Below, piece by piece: positions 330 through 63,692 of a stretch of 64,000 nucleotides of DNA (position 1 is its first letter; each line of letters opens with the position of its first letter). The notes beneath the pieces are model-generated. The model did no database searches and was not told the DNA's origin. It was given only the letters and a program-made list of their open reading frames with translations. A program made the translations under genes and the position numbers. This DNA is from Candidatus Omnitrophota bacterium (GTDB lineage Bacteria; Omnitrophota; Gorgyraeia; B26-G9; JBDRCZ01): NCBI GenBank assembly GCA_043821285.1, contig JBDRCZ010000056.1, positions 792 through 64,791 of the forward strand, in the 5' to 3' direction.

Positions 330-472
330 GGTTGATGTTGAATTTGAGTATTCCCAGTGGGTTGATAGAGGGTGATCTTTTGGAGGGAAAGTTTGAAAAC
401 CTTAGGTTTTCATATGACAAGCTGGATGAACCAAAACATTCCTTTATTATTTTTTTAGTTTTGGTTCATTCA
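330..472. repeat. Composite intergenic repeat with TTGAAAACC-N3-GGTTTTCA palindrome (392-412) and 12-bp inverted repeat TGAACCAAAAC/GTTTTGGTTCA (426-471); family B copy B1
   Basis: Sequence gagtattcccagtgg...gtttgaaaaccttaggttttcatatgacaagctggatgaacc recurs at 9439-9735 and 53844-53893. Confidence 0.6.
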
Positions 473-491
473 GGTTGAAGGAGGTTAACTG

Positions 492-1091
492 ATGCAAGAA
501 AGAGCACAGATTCTTGTTCCAATGGTTGTCGAGCAGACCAGCCGCGGGGAGCGGGCTTATGATATATATTCCCGTCTCCTGAAAGACCGAATTGTGTTTA
601 TCGGTACGGCGATTGATGATAATGTGGCAAATTTAGTTATTGCCCAACTGCTATTTTTACAAATGGAAGATCCGGATAAGAATATTAATGTTTATATCAA
701 TTCACCCGGGGGAATTGTAACCGCCGGGCTGGCAATTTATGATACGATGCAGTTTGTAAAATGTGAGGTTAATACTTATTGTGTTGGCCAGGCCGCGAGC
801 ATGGGAGCGGTGCTGCTTGCCGCAGGCAGGAAAAATAAACGGTATGTCCTTCCGCATGCCCGGGTGATGATCCACCAGCCATGGGGCGGAGTGCAGGGAC
901 AGGCTGCGGATATTAGTATTCAGGCAAAGGAAATCTTAAAGCTGCGTGACCGGATTAATGATATTATTGTCAAACATACCGGCCAGTCGCTGGATAAGGT
1001 GCAAAAAGATACGGATCGTGATTTTTATATGAGTGCAGAAGAGGCAAAAAAATATGGGCTGGTGGATGAAGTGATAACGGTAATGAAGTAG
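492..1091 (+). CDS. clpP: ATP-dependent Clp protease proteolytic subunit
   Basis: Strong ClpP motifs ([16 protein letters not shown], active-site context [16 protein letters not shown]). RBS gaaggagg precedes the ATG. Confidence 0.95.
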
Positions 1092-1110
1092 TTTGTAGTG
1101 AAAAATCGGA

Positions 1111-1189
1111 AAGCAACCACAGATTACGCAGATTGCTCAGATAGTTATAAAGATTTCAGGAAAAAATCTGAGTTAATCTGTGGTTGCTT
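1111..1189. repeat. Family A element: perfect 14-bp inverted repeat AAGCAACCACAGAT/ATCTGTGGTTGCTT enclosing tandem CAGAT 9-mers
   Basis: aaccacagattacgcagattgctcagat motif. Related copies at 3971-4006, 24649-24685, 36581-36620, 40063-40093(-) and 42633-42665. Confidence 0.65.
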
Positions 1190-1218
1190 TAAAAGTACAA
1201 GTAATTTTTGACAGAAGC
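1188..1218 (+). promoter_or_regulatory. Conserved upstream motif TTAAAAGTAC-N10-TTTTGACAGAAGCC (promoter-like)
   Basis: Near-identical motif at 4018-4049 and 40093-40124, each about 20-25 bp upstream of an RBS. Confidence 0.4.
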
Positions 1219-1241
1219 CTGTAATGAAAGAGGAGGATGTA

Positions 1242-2384
1242 ATGCAGAAAAATTATTTAATGACCCCCGGGCCGACACCTGTACCACCGGAAGTTTTAAC
1301 CGCAATGGCTCGTCCGATTATTCATCATCGTACGCCGCAATACGAAAAAATTTTTAAGGAAGTTAATGATAATTTGAAATATGTATTTAGAACGACAAAC
1401 GATATCTTGACGTTTGCCAGTTCCGGGACCGGCGCAATGGAGGCGGCGGTAGTAAATCTTCTAAGCCGCAGTGATAAAGTCTTGGTAATTAGCGGCGGGA
1501 AATTTGGCCAGCGCTGGGCGGAGATTTGTAATACTTATTCGTTAGATGTAAAAATTATTGATGTTCCCTGCGGTGATAGCGTGGACCCCGGTGAAGTGAA
1601 AGCATACCTTGATAAATGTCCAGATATAAAAGTTGTTTTTACCACTTATTGCGAAACATCAACCGGCGCAGTAACCGATATCCAGAGGATTTCCCAGATT
1701 CTCAAGAATACCCAGGCAATTATTGTTGTAGATGCGATAAGTGCGTTCGCCGGTATGGAGCTGTTAACAGACGAGTGGGGAATTGATGTTGTTGTAGTGG
1801 GTTCACAAAAGGGACTGATGATTCCCCCGGGGCTTAGTTTTTGTTCAGTGAGTAAAAAGGCATGGGAGCGGGTAAGTACTTCTAAACTGCCGAAATATTA
1901 CTTTGACTTTAAGCGGGCGAAAAAGGCCCTGGATAAAAATACAACCGCATATACCCCGGCAATAAGTTTAACGGTTGCATTGAATGAGGCCTTAAAAATC
2001 ATAAAAACAGAAGGATTAGAGAATGCATTGTTGCGCCATAAGATGTTAGCGCGTGCCTGCCGCCGGGCAATGAATACTTTAAATCTTCAGATTTTTGCAA
2101 AGAACCCGGCCGATGTCGTTACCTCAGTAAAGGTTCCAGAAGGCATTGATGGTGCAAAATTAGTAAAAACTATGCGGGAAAAATATGGTGTTTCTATTGC
2201 CGGGGGACAAGAAGAATTAAAAGGTAAAATTTTTCGAATTGCCCATATGGGGTATATGGATAAATTTGATTTGGTTGTTGCGGTATCATGTTTGGAAATT
2301 GTTTTATCTGAGCTGGGGTATAAAATAGAGTTTGGCCAGGGCGTGGGGGCGTTAGAGGAAGTTTTTAAGGAGGTTCAAAAGTGA
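1242..2384 (+). CDS. Class V (AGXT/SerC-like) aminotransferase, probably phosphoserine aminotransferase
   Basis: PLP class-V fold motifs. Translationally coupled to serA (GTGA overlap). RBS agaggagg lies before the ATG at 1242; the ORF is open from 1224. Confidence 0.8.
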   Translation: MQKNYLMTPGPTPVPPEVLTAMARPIIHHRTPQYEKIFKEVNDNLKYVFRTTNDILTFASSGTGAMEAAVVNLLSRSDKVLVISGGKFGQRWAEICNTYSLDVKIIDVPCGDSVDPGEVKAYLDKCPDIKVVFTTYCETSTGAVTDIQRISQILKNTQAIIVVDAISAFAGMELLTDEWGIDVVVVGSQKGLMIPPGLSFCSVSKKAWERVSTSKLPKYYFDFKRAKKALDKNTTAYTPAISLTVALNEALKIIKTEGLENALLRHKMLARACRRAMNTLNLQIFAKNPADVVTSVKVPEGIDGAKLVKTMREKYGVSIAGGQEELKGKIFRIAHMGYMDKFDLVVAVSCLEIVLSELGYKIEFGQGVGALEEVFKEVQK

Positions 2385-3961
2385 AAATTTTGGTAACGGA
2401 TCCTATTTCAGAAGAAGGTTTGAATATTTTAAAACAAGAAAAAGATGTGGATGTTGATATAAAATTAAATCCGCCGGCGGAGGAGTTAAAAAAGATTATC
2501 GCTGATTATGATGCTTGGATATTACGCAGCGGCACAAAGGTCACAAAAGATATTATTGACGCCGCGGTAAAACTTCGCGTTATCGGACGTGCCGGTGTCG
2601 GGCTGGATAATGTGGACTCTGAGGCGGCAACTAAACGCGGCATAATTGTGATGAATACCCCAGGTGGCAATACCATCTCTACTGCGGAGCATACCATGAG
2701 TATGATGCTTGCTCTCTCGCGTAATATTCCTCAAGCAGATGCTTCGTTAAGATCCGGCCGCTGGGAGCGGAAAAAATTTACCGGGGTGGAGCTTTTTGGC
2801 AAAACTTTGGGAATTATTGGACTTGGACGTATTGGCCGGGAAGTGGCCAAGCGGGCGCTTTCTTTTAATATGAGAGTCGTTGCTTATGACCCGTTTCTTT
2901 CAAAAGAGCGGACGAGTAAGCTTGAAATAGAATCGATTGATTTAGAAGAATTATTACAAATTTCTGATTATATAACGACTCATACACCACTTACCCAGGA
3001 TACAAAACATCTCATAAGCCAGACAGCGTTTAAAATGATGAAAAAAGGGGTAAAGATTGTAAATTGTGCCCGGGGGGGAATTGTTGATGAAAAAGCGCTT
3101 TATGAGGCAATAAAAGAGGGTATTGTCTCCGGGGCGGCATTAGACGTGTTTGAAAAGGAACCGCCAAATGATAACTGCTTACTTAAACTCGAAAATGTTA
3201 TTGTTACTCCGCATCTTGGTGCTTCAACCGAAGAAGCGCAGATAAATGTTTCTGTCGAGGTCTGCCGTCAGGTGGTTGATGCACTTGTGGGAAGATGTGT
3301 ACGGAATGCAGTTAATTTTCCCTGTCTTGAGCCGGAAGTATTCAAAGTAATCGGGCCATATTTAAATCTTGCGGAAAAATTGGGACTGCTTCAGGCACAG
3401 CTCCTTGCCGGCCGGATAACGCGTGTGGATATAAAATATTGCGGCGATATTATTAACCATGACCTTGCGGTATTGACAATTGCGATCATTAAAGGATTAC
3501 TTGCACCAATATTGCAGGAGACGGTTAATTTTGTGAATGCCCCGGTAATTGCCAAAGAACGCCGGATTGAAATTGTTGAATCAAAAACATCGGAAGTGGA
3601 AGATTTTGCAAATTTAATTTCTATTGATGTATCAACCGATCGCGGAAAAAATTCGGTCGTCGGAACGCTGTTTACAAGAAACGACCCGCGCATTGTTAAA
3701 ATTAATGAGTTCTATATTGATGCCGTACCCAGCGGGTATATGCTGGTTATTGCTAATATCGATAAACCAGGGATTGTTGGTAAGATCGGGACTTTTCTTG
3801 GTGATAACAATATTAATATTGCCGGGATGAATTTTGGCCGTCAAAGTCCAGGCGGTAAGGCGATAACCGTTCTGAATATTGACAGCCCCCTGACGGAAGA
3901 GATGCTGTCTCAGGTAAAATCTATGCCGCATATTCATGATGCGAAAATTGTTAAATTGTAA
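2381..3961 (+). CDS. serA: D-3-phosphoglycerate dehydrogenase with C-terminal ACT domain
   Basis: 2-hydroxyacid dehydrogenase NAD-binding motif GIIGLGRIGREVA and catalytic region. 526-aa long form. Confidence 0.9.
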   Translation: MKILVTDPISEEGLNILKQEKDVDVDIKLNPPAEELKKIIADYDAWILRSGTKVTKDIIDAAVKLRVIGRAGVGLDNVDSEAATKRGIIVMNTPGGNTISTAEHTMSMMLALSRNIPQADASLRSGRWERKKFTGVELFGKTLGIIGLGRIGREVAKRALSFNMRVVAYDPFLSKERTSKLEIESIDLEELLQISDYITTHTPLTQDTKHLISQTAFKMMKKGVKIVNCARGGIVDEKALYEAIKEGIVSGAALDVFEKEPPNDNCLLKLENVIVTPHLGASTEEAQINVSVEVCRQVVDALVGRCVRNAVNFPCLEPEVFKVIGPYLNLAEKLGLLQAQLLAGRITRVDIKYCGDIINHDLAVLTIAIIKGLLAPILQETVNFVNAPVIAKERRIEIVESKTSEVEDFANLISIDVSTDRGKNSVVGTLFTRNDPRIVKINEFYIDAVPSGYMLVIANIDKPGIVGKIGTFLGDNNINIAGMNFGRQSPGGKAITVLNIDSPLTEEMLSQVKSMPHIHDAKIVKL

Positions 3962-3970
3962 AACCTAAAT

Positions 3971-4006
3971 GCAACCACAGATTATACAGATTACGCAGAT
4001 GGTTGT
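3971..4006. repeat. Family A element (aaccacagattatacagattacgcagatggttg)
   Basis: CAACCA...TGGTTG inverted repeat around CAGAT units. Followed by the conserved TTAAAAG...TTTGACAGAACC motif at 4018-4049. Confidence 0.6.
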
Positions 4007-4017
4007 TTTGAAAACAA

Positions 4018-4049
4018 ATTTAAAAGTACCGGTGGTATTTGACAGAACC
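4018..4049 (+). promoter_or_regulatory. Conserved upstream motif TTTAAAAGTACC-N8-TTTGACAGAACC
   Basis: Same motif as 1188-1218 and 40093-40124. RBS gggaggaagg downstream. Confidence 0.4.
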
Positions 4050-5316: not shown

Positions 5317-5448
5317 ACGGCAAAAAGTGTTAAAAAGTGACAATTGACGAAAACAGAATGACGTGCCAAACAACACGGCGGGCAGGTGAGAAAATAAAAA
5401 TTAACAATGATAGTCAAGGTGATGGAAATTTTTTAGGAGGGGGTTGAG

Positions 5449-7293: not shown

Positions 7294-8589
<1,296 letters not shown>

Positions 8590-8624
8590 AAAAAATTCCT
8601 ATACTTTGACGATCCCTTCTCCAC

Positions 8625-8745
8625 AATGCATTGGCGGATCTTCGATGCAGCAAGACGACAGGGTATTACGCTTAGGTGATGCGGCTGCAGCACCGGAAAT
8701 TTTTTTATATAATGAAAACCTGCGGTTTTCAACCTTTCCCTCCAT
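8625..8745 (-). repeat. Composite repeat (family B palindrome tgaaaacctgcggttttca at 8713-8732 plus family C CGAAGATCCGCC module), minus orientation
   Basis: The reverse complement is about 85 percent identical over roughly 120 bp to 57227-57345. Confidence 0.65.
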
Positions 8746-8799
8746 AATGTTACTTGCTGGTAAGACCACAGGAAGTAAACAGGTTCATGTTGAAAGACA

Positions 8800-9411: not shown

Positions 9412-9438
9412 AAGCAGAGAGGTTTTACCGCGATTAAA

Positions 9439-9745
9439 CTTGAGTATTCCCTGTAGCTTGCTACAGGGTGATCTTAGGGATAGTCAAGCTTAAGGAAATT
9501 TTTTAACGTATTAGGAAACAATAAGATTATCAAACTGTGGATAACTTGGGATTTAGGGTATAGTTTGGTATATTTAACTTGGAATTCCCCGCCCCTTGGG
9601 GCGTGGGATGATATAAGAAATTCCTTATCGACGTAGCGAAGCGGAGCTGATCGTGATACCCCGCTGCTTGCGGCGGGGAGAGTTCATTGTTAAGGGAAGG
9701 TTTGAAAACCGTAGGTTTTTAAATGGATAAAAAGATTCCGAAGGA
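9439..9745. repeat. Composite intergenic repeat cluster (hairpin CCCTGTAGCTTGCTACAGGG, GC hairpins, palindrome TTGAAAACCGTAGGTTTTT at 9702-9720)
   Basis: Shares modules with 330-432, 57100-57420 and 63620-63692. Confidence 0.6.
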
Positions 9746-9768
9746 ATTTTTTTATTAACTAAATATTC

Positions 9769-9797
9769 TTGACTTTTATTATCAAGAGTGCTATATT
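9769..9797 (+). promoter_or_regulatory. Sigma-70-like promoter (TTGACT-N17-TATATT)
   Basis: Canonical hexamers and spacing about 15 bp upstream of the 9811 start. Confidence 0.4.
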
Positions 9798-17221: not shown

Positions 17222-17323
17222 ATGCAAAAATCAAATATCAAAAATCAAAATGGGAAATTTTCTTTTAGTCTCCATTTTTTTTAAAAAATGGAGAGGATAA
17301 ATTAATGCCGAAGGCAGTAATTT

Positions 17324-18037
17324 ATGTTAGACAAAAACAATATCCCCGCACATATTGCGATTATCATGGATGGCAATGGCCGCTGGGCGCATAAAAGGCA
17401 TCTTACGCGGCTTAAAGGACATGAAGCCGGAGTAGCTACGGTAAAAAAAATAGTGCGTGAAGCCGGAGATTTAGGGGTTAAGATATTAACCCTTTATACA
17501 TTTTCACAAGAAAACTGGAAACGTTCACGAAATGAAGTATTTGGCTTAATGAGTATTTTAAAGATTTATCTAAAAAAAGATATAAATCTGCTAAGGGAAA
17601 ATAAGGTTAAATTGAATGTTATCGGCGACTTAAACGGTTTCCCGAAACCGATACAGCAGGTATTAAAATGGGCGATAGATGAAACAAGGCAGGGGACGGG
17701 ACTGTTGCTTAACCTGGCTTTGAATTATGGTGCACGTCTTGAAATTGTTCATGCGATAAAAAAAATCGCGAAAAAAGTTCGAAATAATGAAATGAGATTA
17801 TCGGAGATAAATGAGCAAGTTATCTCGGATAATTTGTATACGGCCGGTTTACCGGATCCGGATTTATTAATCAGGACAAGCGGAGAATTACGGCTGAGTA
17901 ATTTTCTGCTCTGGCAGTGTTCGTATACAGAATTTTATTTTTCCAAAAGATTATGGCCGGAGTTTACCACCGATGATTTTCATGATGCAATATTTTCTTA
18001 TCAAAACCGCCATCGACGCTATGGGGGAAGAGAATGA
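17324..18037 (+). CDS. uppS: Undecaprenyl-diphosphate synthase
   Basis: HIAIIMDGNGRWA and cis-prenyltransferase motifs. Confidence 0.9.
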   Translation: MLDKNNIPAHIAIIMDGNGRWAHKRHLTRLKGHEAGVATVKKIVREAGDLGVKILTLYTFSQENWKRSRNEVFGLMSILKIYLKKDINLLRENKVKLNVIGDLNGFPKPIQQVLKWAIDETRQGTGLLLNLALNYGARLEIVHAIKKIAKKVRNNEMRLSEINEQVISDNLYTAGLPDPDLLIRTSGELRLSNFLLWQCSYTEFYFSKRLWPEFTTDDFHDAIFSYQNRHRRYGGRE

Positions 18038-21591: not shown

Positions 21592-21792
21592 TTGATTGCT
21601 CTATCAAGATTATAGGATATTACAGCCGGGTAATCAGACTTTGCAGTATCGGAAATTTTTTTATCTGCTTGAAAACTGTCGTGTTCAAGCTTTCCCTTTT
21701 GAGATTAGAACATTTAATATTAGAAATTATTTAGGATTTAGTGCTTCGAATTTGGAATTTCAAGGCTTTGCTTGCAATCTCTGATTGCATAT

Positions 21793-24652: not shown

Positions 24653-24685
24653 CCACAGATTGCTCAGATTGCACAGATAGTTATT
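24649..24685. repeat. Family A element (aaccacagattgctcagattgcacagatag) starting at the proS stop codon
   Basis: CAGAT 9-mer units. Confidence 0.6.
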
Positions 24686-24706
24686 TTAAAAATAAATGAG
24701 ATATCA

Positions 24707-36580: not shown

Positions 36581-36620
36581 ACACGCAGATTATTTAGATA
36601 GTTGTTTTGAAAATAAATAA
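36581..36620. repeat. Degenerate family A element (aaaacacgcagattatttagatagttgttttgaaaataaat)
   Basis: Shares the CAGAT units and the gttgttttgaaaa tail with 3991-4010. Confidence 0.5.
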
Positions 36621-38682: not shown

Positions 38683-38862
38683 ATAAAAAGATGTGCCATG
38701 AAGGCGCATCTTTTTATCCGAGAAATTCCGCAACATAACGGAATTTCTTAACGTATGAAAATGCCCCTCTGTTTGCGGAGAAGGAGATTCAGCTGTGTAT
38801 GAGTTTACTTTTCTTTTCTAAAGAAAAGGTAAGTGCTAAATTAGTGCCGAAGGCAATAATTT

Positions 38863-39138
38863 ATGTTAGTTACTGTTAAACTATCTGCACCACTTCAGAA
38901 ATTTACAAAAGGCCGGGCGGAGGTCCGGGCATCCGGGAAAAGTATCCGGGAATTGATAAATAATCTTGAAGAAAAAATCCCGGGGATAAAAGAGAAAATA
39001 TGCGATGAGACGGACCGGCTGCATAAGTTCATCAATATTTATGTTAATGAACAAGACATTAGATTCTTAGAACATGCAGAAACAGTGCTGAAAGATGGGG
39101 ATGAGGTATTAATCATTCCGGCGATTGCCGGCGGATGA
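38863..39138 (+). CDS. MoaD/ThiS-family sulfur carrier protein (C-terminal GG)
   Basis: 91 aa, beta-grasp pattern, ends in GG. Confidence 0.7.
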   Translation: MLVTVKLSAPLQKFTKGRAEVRASGKSIRELINNLEEKIPGIKEKICDETDRLHKFINIYVNEQDIRFLEHAETVLKDGDEVLIIPAIAGG

Positions 39139-42562: not shown

Positions 42563-42632
42563 ATATAGCAAGGGAGATTATAGATATTGATTAATTTTGG
42601 ATAGTGTCAAGGCGTTATTACAAAATTAAAAG

Positions 42633-42665
42633 TAACCACAGATTGCACAGATTACGCAGATAGAA
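42633..42665. repeat. Family A element (aaccacagattgcacagattacgcagatag)
   Basis: CAGAT units. Preceded by TTAAAAGT. Confidence 0.6.
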
Positions 42666-42689
42666 CGCTTTAAAACAGAAAAAAGATAT

Positions 42690-42854
42690 AGCCACGGATT
42701 AACACGGATAAAAAAAGGTTAAACGATTTTATTATTAAAATCCGGGTTACATCCGTGTGAATCCGTGGCTGAAAAAAAATACTTACACCACGAATAGCAC
42801 AGATTAACACGAATGGAAAAAAGGTTTATTCGTGACAATTCGTGCAATTGGTGG
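42690..42854. repeat. Family D element with inverted termini AGCCACGGATTAACACGGAT ... ATCCGTGTGAATCCGTGGCT (42690-42770) plus a degenerate tandem copy (42787-42854)
   Basis: Near-identical element at 60083-60178. Confidence 0.65.
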
Positions 42855-43933: not shown

Positions 43934-44052
43934 ATTTATAACAACTGTCTTCAACTAACTGCTGGGAGTACGCAAAATAGCCTACCCCAGCAGGTGAGTT
44001 CGAATGATGAATATGGATTAATAGAAAACTTATAACAAAGTAATGAACCGAA

Positions 44053-44075
44053 CTTGAAAACCTAACGGTTTTCAA
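44053..44075. repeat. Family B palindrome (TTGAAAACCTAACGGTTTTCAA)
   Basis: Perfect 9-bp arms. Confidence 0.6.
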
Positions 44076-44113
44076 ATCGGTTATTTTCACGTTATAGGAA
44101 AATAAATATAAAA

Positions 44114-46636: not shown

Positions 46637-46847
46637 CCACTCTATGTTATAAATAAAAAAACAAATAATCGCACGGCGACGCAGAGACACAGGGGTAAAC
46701 CGCAAAAATTCATCAACCGCGAAATACACTAAAGACACGAAATAGTTAAAAATACTTTGAAGATGAAGAAATTGTTTAAATAAAAACATTTTTCGTGTGT
46801 TTTGTAACTTTCGTGTTAAAAGATAAAAAACAGATAACCAAATGCTG

Positions 46848-46893
46848 CAGTGAATTTGTACTGCTATCGCAGTCCGAATCATTGAGCTTTGCC
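46848..46893 (+). repeat. 48-bp direct repeat, copy 1 (CAGTGAATTTGTACTGCTATCGCAGTCCGAATCATTGAGCTTTGCC)
   Basis: Copy 2 at 47592-47637 differs at 2-3 positions. The two copies flank the 46913-47506 lipoprotein gene. Confidence 0.8.
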
Positions 46894-46912
46894 TTATGTA
46901 GAGTTTATAATT

Positions 46913-47506: not shown

Positions 47507-47591
47507 TATAAAAACACATAACAAATCGTTAAAAAACTCTGTGATCTTTGCGGCTCTGTGTGAGAATAAAAAAAATTATAACAAATCGCTT

Positions 47592-47637
47592 CAGTGAATT
47601 TGTACTGCTATCGCAGTCCGAATCGCTGAGCTTTGCG
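47592..47637 (+). repeat. 48-bp direct repeat, copy 2
   Basis: See copy 1 at 46848-46893. Confidence 0.8.
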
Positions 47638-47718
47638 TCATCGAAAAATAAAAAATGAATAGACGATTAGAAAGCTTAAAAGCTTCACTGTCTAAAGGTT
47701 AAGAAGATTGAATTTTTA

Positions 47719-48129: not shown

Positions 48130-50757
48130 GTGGCATTAAAAATATTAATCAATTTTGATATGAGCAGAAAAATAGTAAACCAAAGACACAAAGCAAAGCG
48201 GATTAAAAAATCGAAAATGATTAAAAAGATTTCTCATTTACGTAAGCCGGATGAATTATCATTAGAACAATGGCAGATAGTTTTAAGAAAACAAATTGCT
48301 TGTGCACAAAAAATGCGTATAAAAAACGTGGGTGAGAATGCAGTATTTTCGACATTTACAGTAACTAATCCTGTTTCACAAAAGACCTACCGTGTCGTTA
48401 TCTGCGGAGAGGAATTAGGGATTAATTATTGTTCTTGTCCTGATTTTTCGATTAATACTCTTGGTACTTGTAAACATATTGAAAATGTGTTACGGAAAGT
48501 TCGAAAAATGAAAGGCGGCAGACAACTGCTTAAGCAGGGGTTCCAGCCGGATTATTCTGCGGTAACTTTACGCTATGGTCTTAAAAGACGTGCGGCCTTT
48601 TTACTTGGGAAAAATGATAGTCGAAAACTAGTAAATTTAATTTTAGAATTTTTTGACGATGATTTATTCATTAAAGAAAAGGGTATCCGTCATTTTGCTG
48701 AATTTCAGAGACGCGCAGCTAAGTTAGATGGTCAGATTCAGTATCATGACGATGCGATTGAATATATTGCGCAAATTCGTGATCGAATTGCAAGAAAAGA
48801 AAAAATTGAGAAGGAATTTTCAAAGGGGGTTAATTCTCCACAATGGGGAACTTTACTTAAAACAGAATTATATCCATATCAAAAAGAAGGTGTACTTTTT
48901 GCGGTTTTAGCAGAGCGTAGTTTAATTGCCGATGAAATGGGTTTGGGAAAAACTATTCAAGCGATTGCGGCAAGTGAGATTATGGCGAGGTATTTCGGTA
49001 TTGAAAAGGTTCTGGTCATATGTCCGACAACTTTAAAATATCAGTGGAAAAATGAAATTAATCATTTTTCTCATTGTAAGGCACAGGTAATTCATGGGAT
49101 GTTGCTCGATCGGCATCGTCAATACGATGATTGTGCTAATGCCTTTTTCAAAATAACAAATTACGATGTTATCCATAGGGATATCGGGGCAATTATGAAA
49201 TGGGGGCCGGATTTGATTATATTGGATGAAGCGCAGCGAATTAAAAATTGGAAAACACGTCGCGCACAATCCGTAAAGCATTTAAAATCCACTTTTGCGA
49301 TTGTTCTTACCGGCACTCCAATAGAAAATCGTTTGGAAGAACTACATTCCATTGTTGAATTCATTGATCGGTATCATTTAGGGCCTCTTTTTCGATTCTT
49401 GCATAATCATCAGATTGTAAGCATAGAGGGAAAGATTACCGGATATAAAGATTTAAATAAAATAGGGAAGACTTTAGAAACCATAATGATCCGCCGAAAA
49501 AGTGAACAGGTATTAAAACAACTGCCAGAACGCATAGATAAAAATTTTTTTATCCCCTTGACGCGTCAACAAGAAGAAATTCATGAAGAATATAGGGTTA
49601 TGGTTGCCCGTCTTGTGACCAAATGGCAGAGATATCATTTTCTCTCGGAAGAGGACCGACAGCGTTTGATGATGGCGTTACAGAAGATGCGGATGGTATG
49701 TGATGATACATATTTGTTGGACCCAAGCACAAACTATGGGTATAAAATCGATGAATTGGAACTGCAGTTACGGGAAATTCTTGAAAATCCTAATGTAAAA
49801 GTAGTTATTTTTTCTCAGTGGTTGCGCATGATGGAATTAATTATAAACATGCTTAATGCCAATAAATGGGAATATGCCTTTTTGCATGGCGGAGTTCCTT
49901 CTGCAAAAAGAGGATGTTTAATTGAAAATTTTCATAATGATTTAACCTGTAGAATATTTTTATCAACAGAAGCAGGTAGCGTAGGACTTAATCTCCAAAA
50001 TGCAACATTTGTCGTAAATGTTGATTTACCATGGAATCCAGCAGTGTTAGAACAGCGGATTAGCCGGGTTTATCGATTAGGACAAGAATACCCTGTTCAT
50101 GTAATAAATTTAATTGCGGAAAGAAGTATTGAGCATGGTATCCTGGGATTGATTGGTTTTAAGAAATCGATGTTTTATGGAGTATTAGATAAAGGTGAGA
50201 ATGAAGTATTTATGGGAACAACCCGATTTAATAGATTTATCAAAACTGTGGAACAGGCTTCAAAGGCTATGGATGAACAAAAGAAAAATATTGAGAAGGA
50301 AGATGAGGATGAGGCATTGAGAGATAAGGAGTTGGCAAATCAAGTTGTCAACGACAATGAGAATGATATCTTACAGCAACAAGTATCTCCCAAAAGTTCT
50401 TCTACTCCGGCGGATTTTTCTGTGGCTCAAGAACATCTAGACTCTTCTAAAGTTAGTAATGATCCCCGTGGCGGTAGTGTTTCTGAAGCGGAAACCGTGT
50501 TAAAATCTATTTTTCAGCTTGGAGCGTCTTTTTTAGAGATATTAAGTAAATCTTTTGGTGAAGAGAAAATATCAGAAGCAAAAAATCAAGCGCGAATGAC
50601 GGGGCATCCCAAAAAACCTTTAGATATTAATTTATCAAAGGATAAAGAAACCGGCAGGCAAATTCTTCAAGTATTGCTGCCGGAAGACAAAACGATGAAA
50701 TTATTAACAAAGACTATTGGAAGAATGTATGAGGCTTTTAAAAAACATGTTGAGTGA
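48130..50757 (+). CDS. SWIM zinc-finger SNF2-family helicase
   Basis: CxCx(n)CxH SWIM (CSCPDFSINTLGTCKHIENV). SNF2 motifs LADEMGLGKT, DEAQRIKN, helicase C (QRISRVYRLGQ). True start may be an internal Met. Confidence 0.8.
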   Translation: MALKILINFDMSRKIVNQRHKAKRIKKSKMIKKISHLRKPDELSLEQWQIVLRKQIACAQKMRIKNVGENAVFSTFTVTNPVSQKTYRVVICGEELGINYCSCPDFSINTLGTCKHIENVLRKVRKMKGGRQLLKQGFQPDYSAVTLRYGLKRRAAFLLGKNDSRKLVNLILEFFDDDLFIKEKGIRHFAEFQRRAAKLDGQIQYHDDAIEYIAQIRDRIARKEKIEKEFSKGVNSPQWGTLLKTELYPYQKEGVLFAVLAERSLIADEMGLGKTIQAIAASEIMARYFGIEKVLVICPTTLKYQWKNEINHFSHCKAQVIHGMLLDRHRQYDDCANAFFKITNYDVIHRDIGAIMKWGPDLIILDEAQRIKNWKTRRAQSVKHLKSTFAIVLTGTPIENRLEELHSIVEFIDRYHLGPLFRFLHNHQIVSIEGKITGYKDLNKIGKTLETIMIRRKSEQVLKQLPERIDKNFFIPLTRQQEEIHEEYRVMVARLVTKWQRYHFLSEEDRQRLMMALQKMRMVCDDTYLLDPSTNYGYKIDELELQLREILENPNVKVVIFSQWLRMMELIINMLNANKWEYAFLHGGVPSAKRGCLIENFHNDLTCRIFLSTEAGSVGLNLQNATFVVNVDLPWNPAVLEQRISRVYRLGQEYPVHVINLIAERSIEHGILGLIGFKKSMFYGVLDKGENEVFMGTTRFNRFIKTVEQASKAMDEQKKNIEKEDEDEALRDKELANQVVNDNENDILQQQVSPKSSSTPADFSVAQEHLDSSKVSNDPRGGSVSEAETVLKSIFQLGASFLEILSKSFGEEKISEAKNQARMTGHPKKPLDINLSKDKETGRQILQVLLPEDKTMKLLTKTIGRMYEAFKKHVE

Positions 50758-50858
50758 ACTTGCTTATTCCCTACGGTTTTGCCATATGGATAGACGGTGG
50801 TAAGGAATTTTTTAGAATAATTTAAAAGTATTACGGAGCTTGTATTCTGTAATTTATT

Positions 50859-53744: not shown

Positions 53745-53893
53745 CCCGCCACAAAGATTGGCGGACAGGGATTAAACTCCCCGCAAAAATATCGCGCAGG
53801 TCCACTAACGTATTCGTGGTGGACATGGTGGGTCATTTAAAGATTGAAAACCGCAGATTTTCATATGACAAGCTGGTTGAGTCATAATATTCC
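53745..53893. repeat. Family C element fused to family B palindrome (TTGAAAACCGCAGATTTTCATATGACAAGCTGG)
   Basis: CCCGCCACAAAG...TTGGCGGACAGGGATTAAACTCC...GGTCATTTAAAG matches 41740-41850. The tail matches 392-428. Confidence 0.65.
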
Positions 53894-53940
53894 TGCGCAT
53901 GTTTAGTTCTGGCTTGCTCAGCTCTTGGGAGGGATGAAAA

Positions 53941-56072: not shown

Positions 56073-57095
56073 ATGGTTATGCGGTTTTTTAAGCGCGAAA
56101 CAGGCAAAACCTGTTTCGCTTCTATCCATCAGGGTAGGTGGTCGGAAAATGGAGAGCATTTTCCGTATATGAATATCCCCCCTTGCTTACAGCGGGGGAT
56201 ATTCATTTCTATTGTTATCGTAACTTTAAACACAGAAAGGTTTATTAAAAAATGCTTAGAAAGTATCTATTGCCAAAGTTACAGAGAGTTTGAAGTTATT
56301 GTTGTTGATAATGGTTCAAGGGATGAAACTGTTAGAATTATAATTTCAGATTTTCCGCAGGTGAGACTTATTAGAAATAAAGAAAATATTGGGTTTTGCC
56401 GGGCGAATAACTTAGGGATTAAGACAGCAATTGGTGAGGCAATACTTACTTTAAACAGTGATATTGTATTAGAGAAAGATTTTCTAGAAAATTTAATTAA
56501 AACGTATCAGAATGCAAAAAAAGATATAGGCATGTTTGCCACAAGGATTTTAAACTGGAATGGTAAAACCATAGATTCTACAGGATTAATATTAACCCGG
56601 GCCCGCCGCTTTTATGACCGTGGTTATGGCAAGGCGATAGAGTATAAAGATAATTCAGAGATTATTGGACCTTGTGCTGCTGCGGCATTATATAAGAGAG
56701 AAATGCTTGAAGATATAAAAATAAACGATGAATATTTTGATGAGAAATTTTTCTTTTTGGTTGAAGATGTAGATATTGCCTGGCGGGCAAAAAACCGCAG
56801 TTGGAGAGTAGAATATGTACCAGAGGCAAAATGTTTTCACTATCGAAACAGCACAAATTTCAACCGAAATTTCCGGCAATACCTATCTTTTCGTAACCGG
56901 TATTACCTGATTTTAAAAAATGAATCAAAATCCGGCTTAATAAAATTTCTGCCATTTTTCTGCATATATGATATTCCCAGATTTCTCTATCTACTTTTAA
57001 CCAATAAACATCATACAATTTTAGCATTAAAAGAACTGTTTAAGAATAGCCCGGCAATGTTAAATAACCGTAAAAGAAGGATTATTGAATCATAA
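56073..57095 (+). CDS. Glycosyltransferase family 2
   Basis: SIVIVTLN...DNGSRDET...DxD context. The likely true start is the ATG at 56169. Confidence 0.75.
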   Translation: MVMRFFKRETGKTCFASIHQGRWSENGEHFPYMNIPPCLQRGIFISIVIVTLNTERFIKKCLESIYCQSYREFEVIVVDNGSRDETVRIIISDFPQVRLIRNKENIGFCRANNLGIKTAIGEAILTLNSDIVLEKDFLENLIKTYQNAKKDIGMFATRILNWNGKTIDSTGLILTRARRFYDRGYGKAIEYKDNSEIIGPCAAAALYKREMLEDIKINDEYFDEKFFFLVEDVDIAWRAKNRSWRVEYVPEAKCFHYRNSTNFNRNFRQYLSFRNRYYLILKNESKSGLIKFLPFFCIYDIPRFLYLLLTNKHHTILALKELFKNSPAMLNNRKRRIIES

Positions 57096-57099
57096 GGGT

Positions 57100-57420
57100 T
57101 TCATTTCATTCCCCGCAGCTTGCTGCGATGATATGATTGGAGTTTGGTTTTTTGATACCCGTAGCTTGTTGCGGGGTTACGAAACTTACCAATTCCTTGC
57201 GGTCTTGCCGCAGGGTGAGGGTTTGAGGGAAAGTATGAAAACCGTAGGTTTTCAAACGGATAAAAAATTTCCGGTGCTGCGAAGCAGCATCAGCTTAGTA
57301 TAAAACCCTGTAGTCTTGCTACATCGAAGATCCGCCAATGCCCGCCACTAATACGATGGCGGATCTACGACATTGTGGAGGGGGGATAGTTACGCTTAAG
57401 GAAATTTTTTATAGCAGTAG
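57100..57420. repeat. Composite intergenic repeat cluster (hairpins CCCCGCAGCTTGCTGCG, CCCGTAGCTTGTTGCGGGG, CCTTGCGGTCTTGCCGCAGGG; family B palindrome at 57235-57255; family C module CATCGAAGATCCGCC...GGCGGATCT)
   Basis: Strong similarity to 8625-8745(-), 9439-9735 and 63645-63692. Confidence 0.65.
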
Positions 57421-57504
57421 GCCTTTTTGGCTATTTTCTATGCCATGTTATGTAACGTTTATAGAATTACATGTGTCTAAAAAGGTCGAAGGATATTCAA
57501 GAAG

Positions 57505-58983
57505 ATGAATAGTAAGGCAACGATTTCATTAATTCTACTTAGAGTAACCTTAGTTTTTCTATTTATATGTAATATTTTTTTCTCCAGCACGGAAGTATGT
57601 GCAATATTGATTCTTGACGAAATACTTGAATTAAACAATAAGGCAATTACTAATATTACGTTTAAGCTAAATGAGGAGCAGCATTATTTAGGAGGGTGGC
57701 ATCAAAAGCTAATTTTGAAAGGTAGCGATGGCAACTTATGGTTATTCAAGTTTACGGGCAAAGAAGGAGCAGATAGAGCTGGTGTGGTTTCTTCATGGGC
57801 GAAGCTTTTTGGAGTAAACTTTAATGAAGTTTATTACATTTCCTTGCCGATTAATGGTGAAATGGTCGATGGTTCCGTACAGAGATTTTTTTCTTCTTCG
57901 ACAACTTTGTGTAATATATCGCCACAAAGTTTATCTGATCAACAGATAGAGCAATTGCAGAAACAGCAGGTATTAGATTGGCTTATATATAATTTTGACA
58001 CGAAGTGTAATAATTTTATAGTTCTTTCTAACACTGGGGAAATAATCGGGGTAGATAAAGAAAGTTGTTTTGAATATCCTGATGAAAAAATTGATTTATC
58101 TAGAAAAAGCACAGTATATTATAGAAAATATTCTTATTATAATAAATTTTGGCAAGCTTATATAAGAGGAACAATCAAGGTCGATCTTAAAAAGACATTT
58201 GAGTTAATAGACCATATCCAAAGTTTTAACGATGATATCTTAACAGAAATATTTTTGTCAGTAGTTATGAAGACAGATAATAGCGATCCAGATGTTTATT
58301 GTTTAAAGGGAATCTATAGGGTTATGGATGCAGTACTTTTGCAGAAGAAAAATTTGCGGCATGATTTTGAAGAGTTTTACCAAATGTTAAATAGAGAAAG
58401 AGGAGAGAAGTTTCGGCTTCCATACAAGAAGATAAATAACAATTTCTCAAAAAATGTGTTACAGAATCTCAAGAGTGATATTTTTGTAAAAAATTGTGGT
58501 TTAAAAGAAGTAACCTCTAAGGAAAACAAGAAACAGCTAAATATTGAAGCAGTTTGTTCAGCTAAAGCTTGGAGGATGGTTCATTCTGAAATTTGCCTAC
58601 CAGACGAAGATCCTAATCGCATAATAGAAAAGTTGGAAGCTGCAAGAAATGGGATAACAAGTATTCATGAGAAATTAGCCATTAGTCTTTACATTGCAAC
58701 ACTCCGTCGTATAAATAAGAATGCACGTACATGGAAAAATTTACAGCTTATTACTAAGCATCCGAAAGCAATATCATGTTCCGAAATAGTTTGTTATCTT
58801 ACTCAAAAAAAAATGATACAATATAATTCTAATGACAGCGAGGACGTTACTCTTGATAGCGAAGATCATTATCTTTTAGGATTAGCTTATATAGTAAAAG
58901 ATCAATACAAAAATGCCAGATTTCATTTTGATAGAGCGAAAGAATTAGGATGTGATATTGAAAAGTTGATCAAAGAAGAGTAG
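57505..58983 (+). CDS. hypothetical secreted protein, possibly an atypical PI3/PI4-kinase-like fold
   Basis: Signal peptide. DWLIYNFDTKCNNFIV and IIGVDKE resemble the GDRHxxN catalytic-loop and DFG-like motifs. Very AT-rich. Confidence 0.35.
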   Translation: MNSKATISLILLRVTLVFLFICNIFFSSTEVCAILILDEILELNNKAITNITFKLNEEQHYLGGWHQKLILKGSDGNLWLFKFTGKEGADRAGVVSSWAKLFGVNFNEVYYISLPINGEMVDGSVQRFFSSSTTLCNISPQSLSDQQIEQLQKQQVLDWLIYNFDTKCNNFIVLSNTGEIIGVDKESCFEYPDEKIDLSRKSTVYYRKYSYYNKFWQAYIRGTIKVDLKKTFELIDHIQSFNDDILTEIFLSVVMKTDNSDPDVYCLKGIYRVMDAVLLQKKNLRHDFEEFYQMLNRERGEKFRLPYKKINNNFSKNVLQNLKSDIFVKNCGLKEVTSKENKKQLNIEAVCSAKAWRMVHSEICLPDEDPNRIIEKLEAARNGITSIHEKLAISLYIATLRRINKNARTWKNLQLITKHPKAISCSEIVCYLTQKKMIQYNSNDSEDVTLDSEDHYLLGLAYIVKDQYKNARFHFDRAKELGCDIEKLIKEE

Positions 58984-59995: not shown

Positions 59996-60082
59996 TCTGG
60001 TGGCTCTGTGTGAGAAAAATTTATATCAAAGCGCTGCAGCGAATAAATGGACTTTATGTTAACCTTATAAGCAAAAATATAA

Positions 60083-60178
60083 AGCCACGGATTAACACTG
60101 ATGGAACACAGATAAGAAAATAAGGTTAAACGATTTGATTATTAAAAATCCGTGTTTCATCTCGGTAAATCCGTGGCT
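60083..60178. repeat. Family D element (AAGCCACGGATTAACACTGAT ... AAATCCGTGGCT)
   Basis: About 85 percent identical to 42690-42770, including the internal AAGGTTAAACGATTT motif. Confidence 0.65.
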
Positions 60179-60480
60179 AAAAAATAATAATCAAACGAAC
60201 AAATTGTCATCCCTGACCTTGTTCCGTCACGAAAGCGGCTTATAAGGCAGGTGAGCGCAAAGGTTAAAAATAAAAAAATCAATAATCACACAGAGCCACA
60301 GAGGCGCAGAGAATGACGAAAAAGAAAATTAGTGCAATTTTTTGAATTTTCTTGTAGTGTGTTAGGAAAAGTAGAATATATTCGGAATGGTTTAAGAAGA
60401 AAATCAGTTCGGCTATTTTTGAAGAAGTTTATAATAAAAGTAACTACCTGAAAAGAATAGGATTTCGAGGAGATACCTTA

Positions 60481-61941: not shown

Positions 61942-62136
61942 ATGATGAAGAAAAAAAAACAATATAAGTTCGAACTAATAGATATGAATAAATATAGAGG
62001 TGAATGGATAGCCTTTATAGATGGGAAAATATTTTCCCATGGCAAGGTGCTTAGAAATGTGCTTGAACGAGCTAAAAAAACCGGGAAAGAGCCAATTATA
62101 GATAAAGTTCCACAACAGAATACATTAATAGTATGA
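61942..62136 (+). CDS. small hypothetical protein (64 aa) coupled to the downstream aspartyl protease
   Basis: ATGA overlap with the next gene. RBS aaggaga. Confidence 0.4.
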   Translation: MMKKKKQYKFELIDMNKYRGEWIAFIDGKIFSHGKVLRNVLERAKKTGKEPIIDKVPQQNTLIV

Positions 62137-62552
62137 TAGAATTTGATTATAAAGGATTTGTAAAGACAGACGAGAGTGGAAAGATATTAGGCGTATATTA
62201 TCGCCCGAATGCGATAGTTAAACTAGTTAATGGTGATAATTATATTGTTTCTAATATGCTTATAGACTCAGGAGCAGATGTTAGTGTGATACCAAAAGCT
62301 GAAGGTGAAGCTTTGGGATTCCGAATTGAAAAGGACGAAAAAATCGAAGATGTCAATGGCATAGGCGGACAGATTCCAGTCGTACATCGGGCCATAGAAT
62401 TTAATATAGGCATAGCGGGCATAAAAATAAATATAGCCTGGGCACTGATAAATGATCTTCCCCCAATTATGGGGAGAGAAGGTGTATTTGATACATTCAT
62501 TATAGAATTTCGGCAGAAAGAGAAGAAAGTTAGATTCCATCGTATCAAATAG
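62133..62552 (+). CDS. Retropepsin-like (clan AA) aspartyl protease
   Basis: MLIDSGADVSVIP active-site motif. Paralog of 27975-28328. Confidence 0.7.
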   Translation: MIEFDYKGFVKTDESGKILGVYYRPNAIVKLVNGDNYIVSNMLIDSGADVSVIPKAEGEALGFRIEKDEKIEDVNGIGGQIPVVHRAIEFNIGIAGIKINIAWALINDLPPIMGREGVFDTFIIEFRQKEKKVRFHRIK

Positions 62553-62689
62553 AGAAGTGTTCATGATTAAATAATATTTTCCTTCCTAAAAAATCCTATC
62601 ATAAATTTCCAGGGAGATATAGAAATGAACCTATAATGTGTAAAGTTTCCCTTTTGCCAAGATAGACATTTTATTAGACAAAGACTCTA

Positions 62690-63140
62690 ACTATAACCGA
62701 GGAGGGAAAGGAAAGAGAGGGATACAGACAGTCGGATGGGGTTGACAAGTGGGGAAGTCAAGATATGATAAACTTGACAAAGCGAGAACCCCTGGGTCCA
62801 GACGGGGAGAGGATAAGTTTCCTACCATTCGCAGAACTGGGTAATAGAATAATGGACACTCAAACCTAAGCATGAATCAAACTGAGGTAATGGAGACAGA
62901 TAGTTAAGGTTAGATGTAGTCTGTATCGGGAACTGAGGGAAGGATTCATGTAAACTTGTTGGTATCTGAACTTGAAGCCGTACTGTGGAAAAACCCGACG
63001 TACGGAATTTTAGCGGGGACTTTGGAAACGTAGATAATGGTGAAATTAGGAACCCACCGCACAATCGAAAGGGTGCGTGATTTGGAAGCTCTTCACTTAA
63101 TATGCTGTGCGCCAGAGTTCTACCCGACAAGAACACAGAG
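62690..63140 (+). ncRNA. Candidate structured non-coding RNA (GC-rich, ORF-free). Contains a group-II-intron domain-V-like hairpin at 62974-63010
   Basis: No plus-strand ORF. Local GC is well above the surroundings. Multiple stem-loops, e.g. GAAGCCGTAC...GTACGG. Only low-complexity spurious ORFs on the minus strand. Confidence 0.35.
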
Positions 63141-63217
63141 CAGGAATAAAGCTATTCAGAGATTTTTTCTGTGAACTTTGTGTTCTCTGTGGTTAAAATC
63201 TATTTGATTATTGTTAA

Positions 63218-63445
63218 TTACGACACAGCCTGAAAGCGATATCCTTTCAAATCAATGATCGGTTATTCAAAGAGGCTAAGGAACTTATTCACAAGACGCA
63301 TGTTCCTAAAAACTCCTATATCAATGATGCCCTTAAGTATTACAATCGACTGATTAGAAGAAAGCTCCTAAAACAGCGTTACCAGAAAGAATCAGCATTA
63401 GTAGTTGAACATTCGTTGCAGATTAATCGGGAATTCCAATGTTAA
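63218..63445 (+). pseudogene. VapB/ribbon-helix-helix-like antitoxin remnant lacking a canonical start codon
   Basis: Translation SFQINDRLFKEAKELIHKTHVPKNSYINDALKYYNRLIRRKLLKQ matches the RHH antitoxin pattern. No ATG/GTG/TTG in frame after the upstream stop. No toxin partner. Confidence 0.3.
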
Positions 63446-63644
63446 AAAACTAAAGAAGTGTTTAAATTTAATTCTGGATTGATTAAAAAAGGGAGAACTG
63501 GAAAAGGGGTTTATTATATATTAGATCCTGTTTATAGGGGACATAAGGGGACATTCTACTATATACAAATTGAGCCATAATTTTTCTTTAGGTTATTTTG
63601 AACTTGATTATTCTCTTTATCTTGCTAAAGGGTGAATTTTAGAA

Positions 63645-63692
63645 GGAAAGCTTGAAAACCTACGGTTTTCAAATGGATAAAAAATTTCCGGT
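63645..63692. repeat. Family B module (GGAAAGCTTGAAAACCTACGGTTTTCAAATGGATAAAAAATTTCCGG)
   Basis: Near-identical to 57227-57274 and 9695-9734. Confidence 0.7.

Follow-up and report, generated by a model that had tools for sequence, protein, structure and literature searches.

What is the palindrome, TTGAAAACC and GGTTTTCAA separated by a few nucleotides, that recurs between the genes of a 64-kb stretch of DNA from a single contig of a Candidatus Omnitrophota metagenome-assembled genome (MAG)? An earlier note on this stretch ("the window", to which all window results given here refer) had counted seven copies with perfect 9-bp arms, most of them within longer conserved units and 40 to 110 bp upstream of gene starts, and had proposed either the operator of a dimeric regulator or a family resembling repetitive extragenic palindromes (REPs), bacterial interspersed mosaic elements (BIMEs), or miniature inverted-repeat transposable elements (MITEs). 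We arrive, at a probability of roughly 0.85, at the reading that the palindrome forms the second hairpin in the left end (LE) of an insertion sequence (IS) of the IS200 group (IS200/IS605 family), and that the window copies are nonautonomous, partly nested, and decayed derivatives of the MITE or palindrome-associated transposable element (PATE) kind. They are most likely immobile relics without a demonstrated host function, given their pairwise identity of 68 to 84%, the damage to several hairpins, and the loss from every copy of the −10/ATG part that intact elements carry.

We searched the window for the exact pattern TTGAAAACC-N2-5-GGTTTTCAA with perfect 9-bp arms and compared the outcome with shuffled windows, which are expected to contain none. 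The family is real, but arms of this quality are found at two of the seven cited sites, 44054–44075 and 63652–63672. Reading of the others reveals arms perfect over 8 bp at 392, 8713, and 57235, and a single mismatch or wobble at 9702 and 53844. Folded as single-stranded DNA (ssDNA), the hairpins yield −4.6 to −6.9 kcal/mol, with 53844 (−2.6 kcal/mol) and 44054 (−9.2 kcal/mol) as outliers. An alignment shows that a common 5′ part, TTGAAcTTGAgTATTCCC-hairpin-GGGTGA..GGAGGGAAAG, precedes the palindrome (hereafter hairpin 2) at six of the seven cited sites. A hidden Markov model built from the six window copies that share this extended unit (the window HMM) recovers all six full copies, in keeping with the longer conserved units described earlier, and further identifies a degenerate copy on the minus strand that had been missed (21603–21698, E = 7e-9) and a half copy that lacks hairpin 2 (9433–9482, E = 2e-7). 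Palindrome-bearing units and their derivatives are ≈65 to 230 bp long and fall into two subtypes: in B1, hairpin 2 is followed by ATGGATAAAAAATTTCCGG (members 57235, 63652, 9702, 8713, and 21668), and in B2 by TATGACAAGCTGG and a long hairpin (members 392 and 53844). With pairwise identities of 68 to 84% and several damaged hairpins, the copies look old.

The origin of this unit becomes apparent outside the window. When one genome per species was scanned for the palindrome plus an AARG pattern, more than 100 loci came up, most of which carry a whole upstream module beyond the palindrome searched for, AACTTG..ATTCC, a GC hairpin with a CTTG loop, then AGGGAAAG and TTGAAAACC-NNN-GGTTTTCAA; across loci the order runs (T)TAAC/TTG, ATTCC, a G+C-rich hairpin (hairpin 1) looped by CTTG or CTCTG, a linker, and AGGRAAAG. 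Hosts include Flavobacteriaceae, Patescibacteria, Gammaproteobacteria, Opitutales/Verrucomicrobia, Omnitrophota, and Planctomycetota, and single genomes of Flavobacteriaceae harbor at least 10 near-identical copies of ≈150 bp. The loci are often multicopy and many lie at contig ends, as expected for repeated mobile DNA. A tnpA gene for a protein of ≈140 amino acids follows the module in Gammaproteobacteria, Opitutales, Patescibacteria, and many metagenome contigs, with hairpin 2 ending 12 to 17 nt before the ATG; six loci contain a complete TnpA open reading frame (ORF) of 140 to 150 amino acids (HYHIVFPVKYRK...DHIHxL...GGEFWSDGYY) and then a right end (RE) with the same hairpin as the LE. At one locus (L037), the downstream ORF encodes a pectate lyase and tnpA is truncated. 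Behind the tnpA stop codon come ATACC, an LE-type hairpin, and ≈9 nt ending in TTSATT, which over 70 tnpA-linked loci gives the RE consensus ATACC-hairpin-GGGTnnTTSATT. An intact element therefore reads LE terminus (T)RAAC-TTG, ATTCC and hairpin 1, linker, purine tract AGGRAAG, hairpin 2, tnpA, and RE. Earlier candidates, namely a riboswitch, a T-box, a sigma-54 promoter, the 5′ end of a group II intron, and a TnpB/IscB guide RNA, were dropped once the TnpA ORF had been recognized.

Both ends of an IS200/IS605-family element have a hairpin to which TnpA binds, the element inserts 3′ of a tetra- or pentanucleotide, and in PATEs only the ends are left (PMC7290912); transposition proceeds through a single strand, makes no target duplication (PMC7290912, PMC5027513), and is linked to the lagging-strand template (PMC5027513). 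By analogy, the ATTCC-hairpin is of the kind of subterminal hairpin bound by Y1 TnpA. On the NCBIfam equivalog model for IS200 (NF033573, transpos_IS200; cut-off 55), the linked TnpA reaches 141.7 bits, and on the model for the REP-associated tyrosine transposase, RAYT (NF047646; cut-off 80), 27.2 bits. These scores bear on the proposal of a REP/BIME family served by a RAYT and not derived from an IS, which could draw on the fact that the elements are short G+C-rich hairpins between genes, conserved in their 5′ flank and at times in adjacent pairs (9572–9688 and 57100–57215), and on the known resemblance of REPs to IS200/IS605 subterminal hairpins (PMC3333891). We regard this as highly improbable given the scores, the position of the transposase gene inside LE and RE, the repetition of whole LE-RE units at many sites per genome, and the lack of a RAYT in the window. 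The REP/BIME- or MITE-like alternative raised earlier is nevertheless right in substance: the copies are homologous to IS200 ends without tnpA, as in PATEs and MITEs, a class with which REPs are connected by their Y1 transposases.

To place the window copies relative to these elements independently of the palindrome, we gathered 80 metagenome loci through protein sequence only, using the peptide patterns HYH[IVL]VFPV and [ED]LWGGE[FL]W, and built an LE profile from the upstream regions of 60 protein-ascertained loci with hairpin 2, including no window sequence. This profile matches the window at 57190–57261 (E = 1e-12), 9654–9728 (E = 9e-12), 8772–8708 (E = 5e-8), 349–420 (E = 7e-8), and 63642–63674 (E = 6e-6), and the top score in shuffled windows is 13.8 bits. 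Same-strand subterminal hairpins, ATTCC- at one end and ATACC- at the other, are present in 9572–9688, 57100–57185, and 57186–57325 and are degenerate in 8592–8789 and 21603–21698; left junctions share (T)RAAC before TTG, and right tips end in TTSATT, which are candidate boundaries of the element. A tblastn search of the window with six TnpAs yields a best E value of 0.31 and no transposase remnant, and the window copies are therefore nonautonomous. End homology, same-strand hairpins, and the absence of tnpA together support the PATE/MITE assignment.

Relatives of the B2 subtype occur in anammox Planctomycetota at 76 to 87% identity to the window over 55 to 100 nt (loci L006, L011, L020, L034, L052–L054, L099, L102, and L108, from Scalindua, Brocadiaceae, and other Planctomycetota MAGs). 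The unit consists of AAGGGAAAG, hairpin 2, and a hairpin with a stem of ≈20 bp, ACAACCTGGnnnnnCCAGAAC...GTTCTGGnnnnnCCAGGTTGGG (384–477 in the window). The Scalindua/Brocadiaceae units lie mostly 50 to 200 nt ahead of co-oriented genes (seven of eight evaluable Scalindua loci), and those of Scalindua have a TATAAT just upstream; inspection finds no consistent −10 box behind the TTGACA-like motif 3′ of hairpin 2. Neighboring genes encode a response regulator, a multiheme cytochrome, ThiE, MgtE, an aldolase, NAPRTase, and IspG, a functionally unrelated set that counts against a regulon and agrees with mobile DNA in dispersed positions.

How the copies are placed among the window's genes bears on the choice between mobile DNA and a host regulatory site. 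All eight sites are intergenic, in a window of which intergenic DNA makes up 17% (P ≈ 7e-7). The gap to the next plus-strand start is 36 to 91 nt at five sites, but 172 nt at 21668 and 250 nt at 57235, and two copies are inverted along with their flanks and located just 3′ of genes, both minus-oriented copies lying 77 to 124 nt past a stop codon. The genes on either side are of ordinary chromosomal kinds (clpP, purA, ispG, and those for an M50 protease, a glycosyltransferase, and an NYN-domain protein). As the earlier note had it, the ORF at 492–1091 is clpP, and the ORFs at 9811, 57505, and 63708 encode hydrophobic N termini resembling signal peptides.

An operator of a dimeric transcription factor, with clpP and the genes for secreted proteins as its regulon, would explain why the dyad symmetry is real, why five sites stand 36 to 91 nt ahead of plus-strand starts, and why the dyad overlaps a promoter-like −35/spacer region in intact IS copies; the symmetric covariation described below is also expected of a co-evolving operator. 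We nonetheless consider it very improbable. Rather than a free dyad at a fixed distance from a promoter, the palindrome is embedded in a unit of 70 to 230 bp homologous to the IS200 left ends of many phyla; start distances spread over 36 to 250 nt, two copies stand in inverted orientation, flanks included, just 3′ of genes, neighboring genes are functionally unrelated in the window and at the Scalindua loci, and several copies have damaged arms. A promoter scan of the window copies detects no promoter-like site through the palindrome in any of them, and the −10/ATG part is kept in none; the suspected promoter connection has a counterpart in intact elements, where the palindrome overlaps the predicted tnpA −35/spacer. 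Among sigma-70-like sites close to copies, the best is TTGACT-17-TATATT (9769–9797), which has an extended TG and ends 13 nt before ATG 9811; it is outside the repeat and may be the promoter of gene 9811 itself.

Similar evidence bears on whether the host has co-opted the copies as cis-regulatory cassettes or small RNAs (sRNAs), in the form of outward promoters, structures in 5′ untranslated regions (UTRs), or terminators. Plus-oriented window copies do lie upstream of co-oriented genes, as do the units at seven of eight evaluable Scalindua loci, with the gene 50 to 200 nt downstream and TATAAT just upstream of the B2 unit; minus copies, 77 to 124 nt past stop codons, present a hairpin followed by CTTTCCCT, and one passes a terminator-like scan in that orientation; and there is a precedent in the Salmonella IS200 5′ UTR, which gives rise to a regulatory RNA (PMC5435999). 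This takeover is unlikely in our view, since the window copies lack a promoter-like site using the palindrome, and their placement is equally explained by purifying selection against genic insertion, the orientation bias known for the family, and near-uniform gene orientation. The copies are also decaying rather than conserved (68 to 84% identity). A scan for rho-independent terminators makes no plus-strand call on any copy and one minus-strand call (63651–63673; stems have 2 to 3 G-C pairs), so that a single copy is terminator-like, on the strand without gene ends. Rfam at gathering score gives no match over the whole window, a permissive Rfam scan of 57050–57520 returns chance-level matches only, and a tRNA/tmRNA scan of the window finds no genes.

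To address the role of hairpin 2 in intact elements, we tested covariation on the protein-ascertained LE set with an explicit structure for hairpin 2. RNAalifold on the full LE alignment returns hairpin 1 only, because ≈12 sequences lack hairpin 2. With the explicit structure both hairpins covary, with 94.9% of cells paired as compared to 86.2% in shuffles and 35 to 53% with slid partners, and double-sided changes in 13 of 17 pairs. For hairpin 1, covariation extends over 68 loci. Within hairpin 2, a first pair occurs as A-U (36 sequences) or G-C (21) and a second as U-A (26), C-G (11), or G-C (6), and one locus has a wholly different stem, TATGAGGGGGAC/GTCCCCCTCATA, at the hairpin-2 position. 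Because the two arms covary, pairing or dyad symmetry is under selection in its own right; it may act through a hairpin, either of the ssDNA transposition intermediate or of read-through RNA, or through a dyad to which a protein binds.

Spacing in the 59 tnpA-linked LEs with hairpin 2 (loci L112–L191) suggests a further role. In 42 of the 59, a NAnnnT box (TATACT, TAAACT, TAGAAT, and the like) stops exactly 6 nt short of the ATG, the 5′ arm of hairpin 2 contains a −35-like hexamer (TTGAAA in 24, TTGGAA in 11, CTGAAA in 8), and the spacer is 16 to 17 nt in 46 of 59; a Shine-Dalgarno core at working distance is found in four. A promoter scan of two loci identifies TTGGAA-17-TAGAAT and TTGAAA-16-TAAACT, each ending 6 nt before the ATG. 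It is thus reasonably probable, as judged from these sequences, that the 5′ arm of hairpin 2 serves as the −35 box of tnpA, with the 3′ arm in the spacer, TAnnnT as the −10 box, and a leaderless tnpA mRNA. An internal AUG without a ribosome-binding site would then make host read-through transcripts poor templates for tnpA translation. We rejected AGGGAAAG as the tnpA Shine-Dalgarno (it is 35 to 45 nt from the ATG, and the core occurs in 4/59 only) and a leader peptide starting at the palindrome TTG (frames and stops are inconsistent across loci), and an inspection by eye for an antisense promoter opposite the tnpA start found none. A second feature of intact elements emerges when the start-codon region is compared with the first 45 nt past the stop codon (loci L112–L191): in ≈38 of 68 elements, 8 to 16 nt around the ATG are perfectly complementary to a stretch directly past the stop codon, with covariation (for example, GAGGGATGAGTCCT paired with AGGACTCATCCCTC), as compared to 5.6% of mismatched pairings that reach at least 8 nt. 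This start/anti-start pairing may mask the start codon in the mRNA or form an ssDNA panhandle that unites both ends.

Hairpin 2, with GGAAAG upstream and TTTCC downstream, is kept in three independent miniature lineages, those of Flavobacteriaceae, a Portnoybacteria locus, and the window family. The best-preserved window copy (57186–57411) and a flavobacterial copy are predicted to fold as ssDNA into an LE hairpin, a closed central stem that encloses hairpin 2, and an RE hairpin (z = −4.9 and −4.3, respectively). Once the tnpA body is lost, the central fold would bring the two TnpA-binding hairpins side by side; the autonomous element would move by single-strand "peel-and-paste" transposition, and past mobilization of the miniatures would have relied on TnpA supplied in trans. 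Tentatively, and we think the proposition rather doubtful, a wide IS200-type clade (in Patescibacteria, Gammaproteobacteria, the Planctomycetes-Verrucomicrobia-Chlamydiae group, and Bacteroidota) could share an undescribed scheme that combines leaderless tnpA with a hairpin-buried −35 box, start/anti-start complementarity, and a central fold required in cis, in which case hairpin 2 would have a function of its own, within the transposition substrate or as a switch, and not be a passive leftover.

Several observations weigh against the IS200 reading or its extensions. No transposase gene and no intact element is found within the 64 kb, so that mobilization in trans there is a presumption. The window's PurA is 100% identical to a protein labeled at NCBI as belonging to a Candidatus Omnitrophota MAG, which contradicts the Scalindua origin that B2-type units in Scalindua MAGs had at first suggested; the next PurA in the database is 63% identical and contig look-ups by exact protein gave no match, which leaves no close relative for a presence/absence comparison. 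Sites 53844 and 21668 fall below significance on the LE profile and are tied to the family via similarity to 392 and 8713. The 3′ module that closes several elements, GGATAG..AAGGAAATTTTTTA, is unlike the canonical IS200 RE, and in B2 hairpin 2 is joined to a long hairpin for which intact ISs offer no counterpart, which makes B2 a chimera; moreover, most Scalindua B2 copies lack hairpin 1 and have AAACAGCTTTATAATTTAGCT upstream in its place. Covariation fits a hairpin and a co-evolving dyad-symmetric binding site alike, and ≈12 of 68 tnpA-linked LEs do without hairpin 2 and have other structures near the start codon, so that hairpin 2 is not essential for the clade. The leaderless promoter is a prediction from consensus spacing. 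Finally, the top strand of the element lies on the G-rich strand in six of eight copies, a skew that agrees with a lagging-strand-template preference, yet is not significant and is confounded by uniform gene orientation.

Within the window, the best-preserved B1 copy (57186–57411, plus strand; window HMM E = 4e-37) illustrates the long form, shared with 8592–8789. It contains an LE hairpin, CCTTGCGGTCTTGCCGCAGGG (57195–57215), followed by GAGGGAAAG, hairpin 2 (57235–57255), a AAAAAATTTCCGGTG relic, an internal hairpin, an RE-like hairpin AACC-CTGTAGTCTTGCTACA (≈57300–57321), and the 3′ module GGGGGATAGTTACGCTTAAGGAAATTTTTTA (57381–57411). It is directly abutted by a mini-element (57100–57185, plus strand) with an LE-type CATTCC-CCGCAGCTTGCTGCG and an RE-type GATACC-CGTAGCTTGTTGCGGGG hairpin, for which the LE profile is weak (57107–57135, 12.4 bits). 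The inverted B1 copy at 8592–8789 (minus strand; window HMM E = 1e-34) has an LE hairpin, GGAGGGAAAG, hairpin 2 (8713–8732), the AAAAAATTTCCGGTG relic, and a degenerate RE-like hairpin, and closes, directly against the purA stop codon, with the 3′ module GGGATCGTCAAAGTATAGGAATTTTTTTT. The B1 copy at 63598–63692 (plus strand; window HMM E = 1e-25; repeat family D2), 81% identical to the copy at 57203–57275, begins with the LE terminus TTGAACTTGAT and a decayed LE hairpin (≈63613–63632), continues with GAAGGAAAG, the perfect hairpin 2 (63652–63672), and ATGGATAAAAAATTTCCGG, and ends 16 nt ahead of the start at 63708. The degenerate copy at 21603–21698 (minus strand), 79% identical to 8686–8741 (family D11), reads GGGAAAG-CTTGAACAC-GAC-AGTTTTCAAG, then GATAAAAAAATTTCCG, then a decayed RE that ends in AATCATT; it is placed 12 to 107 nt past the stop codon of the M50 protease gene, and its hairpin folds at −6.9 kcal/mol.

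The two B2 copies are both on the plus strand. B2-a (338–477; window HMM E = 1e-26) retains the LE terminus TTGAATTTGAG (338–348), a degenerate LE hairpin (353–372), and GGAGGGAAAG (382–391) ahead of hairpin 2, TGAAAACC-TTA-GGTTTTCA (394–412), after which the long hairpin GACAAGCTGGATGAACCAAAAC...GTTTTGGTTCATTCAGGTTG (416–477) ends 15 nt ahead of the clpP start. B2-b (53794–53921; window HMM E = 4e-18), decayed and 84% identical to 388–443 (family D4), has one arm mismatch in hairpin 2 (53844–53863, −2.6 kcal/mol), followed by TATGACAAGCTGGTTGAG... and a long imperfect hairpin, with the NYN-domain gene downstream.

Adjacent and nested arrangements occur as well, and derivatives without the palindrome accompany the full copies. 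The mini-element at 9572–9688 (plus strand) is complete, with the LE form AACTTGGAATTCC-hairpin (hairpin at ≈9585–9608) and, at 9655–9688, a canonical RE, GATACC-CCGCTGCTTGCGGCGGGG-AGAGTTCATT, which corresponds exactly in form to the 70-locus consensus; together with 57100–57185, it defines an LE-RE class that lacks hairpin 2. Directly behind this RE lies a hairpin-2 module (9689–9753, plus strand; detected by the window HMM and as part of repeat family D2) that consists of GTTAAGGGAAGG, hairpin 2 with one G-T wobble (9702–9722), and AAATGGATAAAAAGATTCCG. A short form joins an LE directly to the 3′ module: at 9433–9505 (plus strand; window HMM E = 2e-7, LE profile E = 1e-3; families D7 and D13), the LE terminus TTAAACTTGAG and a perfect LE hairpin, CCCTGTAGC-TT-GCTACAGGG, run into the 3′ module GGGATAGTCAAGCTTAAGGAAATTTTTTA, and at 50752–50816 (plus strand; a weak window-HMM match), a GAACTTGCTTATTCCC-hairpin is joined to GGATAGACGGTGGTAAGGAATTTTTTAG. 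The 3′ module, GGATAG-N8-10-AAGGAAATTTTTTA, terminates the window's long and short elements, with copies at 5409–5435, 9479–9505, 50790–50816, 57385–57411, and 8592–8625 (minus strand); the one at 5409–5435 stands alone, right ahead of the ribosome-binding site of gene 5449.

The palindrome at 44054–44075 (no strand assigned), TTGAAAACC-TAAC-GGTTTTCAA extended by AACCGA../..TCGGTT, shares the hairpin only, has no family flanks, and scores 8.9 bits on the LE profile as compared to the shuffle maximum of 13.8. Its membership in the family is not supported; it could be either a solo relic or a hairpin of unrelated origin. It also falls within a three-copy family, D3 (44023–44095, 46825–46897, and 47569–47641), where it sits at the place at which the other two copies carry a different hairpin, GCAGTGAATTTGTACTGC...; this layout suggests that the 44054 hairpin belongs to another modular repeat.

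Other repeats share the window. Heptamer-like arrays (CACAGAT, CGCAGAT, CACGGAT, and similar) are a separate repeat family located mostly just 3′ of plus-strand genes, some with an inverted partner close by, at 1095–1161, 3953–4019, 24631–24697, 36586–36618, 40000–40045, 42614–42722, 42737–42788, 46646–46692, 60070–60115, 60145–60196, and 60263–60309; an array of this type also directly follows the IS200 right end at an Opitutales locus (L083). A 56-nt repeat that contains AAATTAATGCCGAAGGCAGTAATTTATGTTAG is found at 17275–17330 and 38814–38869 (79% identical), where it overlaps the starts of genes 17324 and 38863. An Omnitrophota locus (L103) has a similar ATTGCCGAAGGCAA hairpin after hairpin 2.

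For genome annotation, about a dozen puzzling intergenic repeats thereby become relics of one insertion-sequence lineage, and a false regulon lead is removed. More broadly, one recognizable IS200 LE and its miniatures are spread over very distant phyla, including the poorly known Omnitrophota, Patescibacteria, and anammox Planctomycetota, and the anatomy of the intact elements predicts that expression of the transposase is kept private by an mRNA without a leader, a hairpin that contains the promoter, and pairing of the start with an anti-start stretch. Selfish-DNA relics are a known kind; what we infer to be mildly novel lies outside the window, namely the predicted leaderless promoter in a covarying hairpin and the start/anti-start complementarity. 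This should be of interest to specialists in mobile DNA and leaves the view of how the family works unchanged.

Comparison with known systems begins with the IS200 of Salmonella and other Enterobacteriaceae, which likewise has a single small Y1 (HUH) transposase gene and end hairpins rather than terminal inverted repeats, as well as two inverted repeats in the LE, the second between the subterminal hairpin and the start codon (PMC4513863). In both, tnpA expression appears tightly insulated. In Salmonella, the second repeat (nt 69–138) is a 5′-UTR stem-loop that hides a near-perfect Shine-Dalgarno, with an antisense RNA, art200, and insulation against read-through is provided by a terminator hairpin and this stem-loop (PMC4513863). 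Hairpin 2 here is, in contrast, ≈21 nt long, overlaps the predicted −35/spacer, and is associated with no Shine-Dalgarno and an ATG 6 nt past TAnnnT; the two elements have no similarity at the DNA level (no Rfam match). The IS605-group elements IS608 and ISDra2 resemble the present ones in having a hairpin ≈15 to 20 nt inside the left tip and ≈9 to 10 nt inside the right tip, with a short conserved motif 5′ of each hairpin foot in the place of the guide tetranucleotide (here ATTCC and ATACC), and their lagging-strand-template insertion (PMC5027513) agrees with the orientation skew here, which at six of eight is not significant. These elements carry tnpB and a guide RNA, whereas no tnpB is linked here, and the left motif (T)RAAC and right tip TTSATT are candidates only. 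REP/BIME-RAYT systems, too, are hairpin repeats in intergenic DNA that have a relationship to IS200/IS605 ends and are acted on by Y1 HUH enzymes (PMC3333891), but the TnpA here is of the IS200 type and whole LE-RE units, not bare REP hairpins, are repeated. The closest likeness is to the PATEs and IS200/IS605 MITEs of Haloquadratum and Halanaerobium, which keep the hairpin ends, have lost tnpA, and are presumed to be mobilized in trans (PMC3119063, PMC7290912); relative to these, the window family is modular and nested, treats hairpin 2 as optional, ends in a noncanonical 3′ module, includes the B2 chimera, and has relatives in several phyla.

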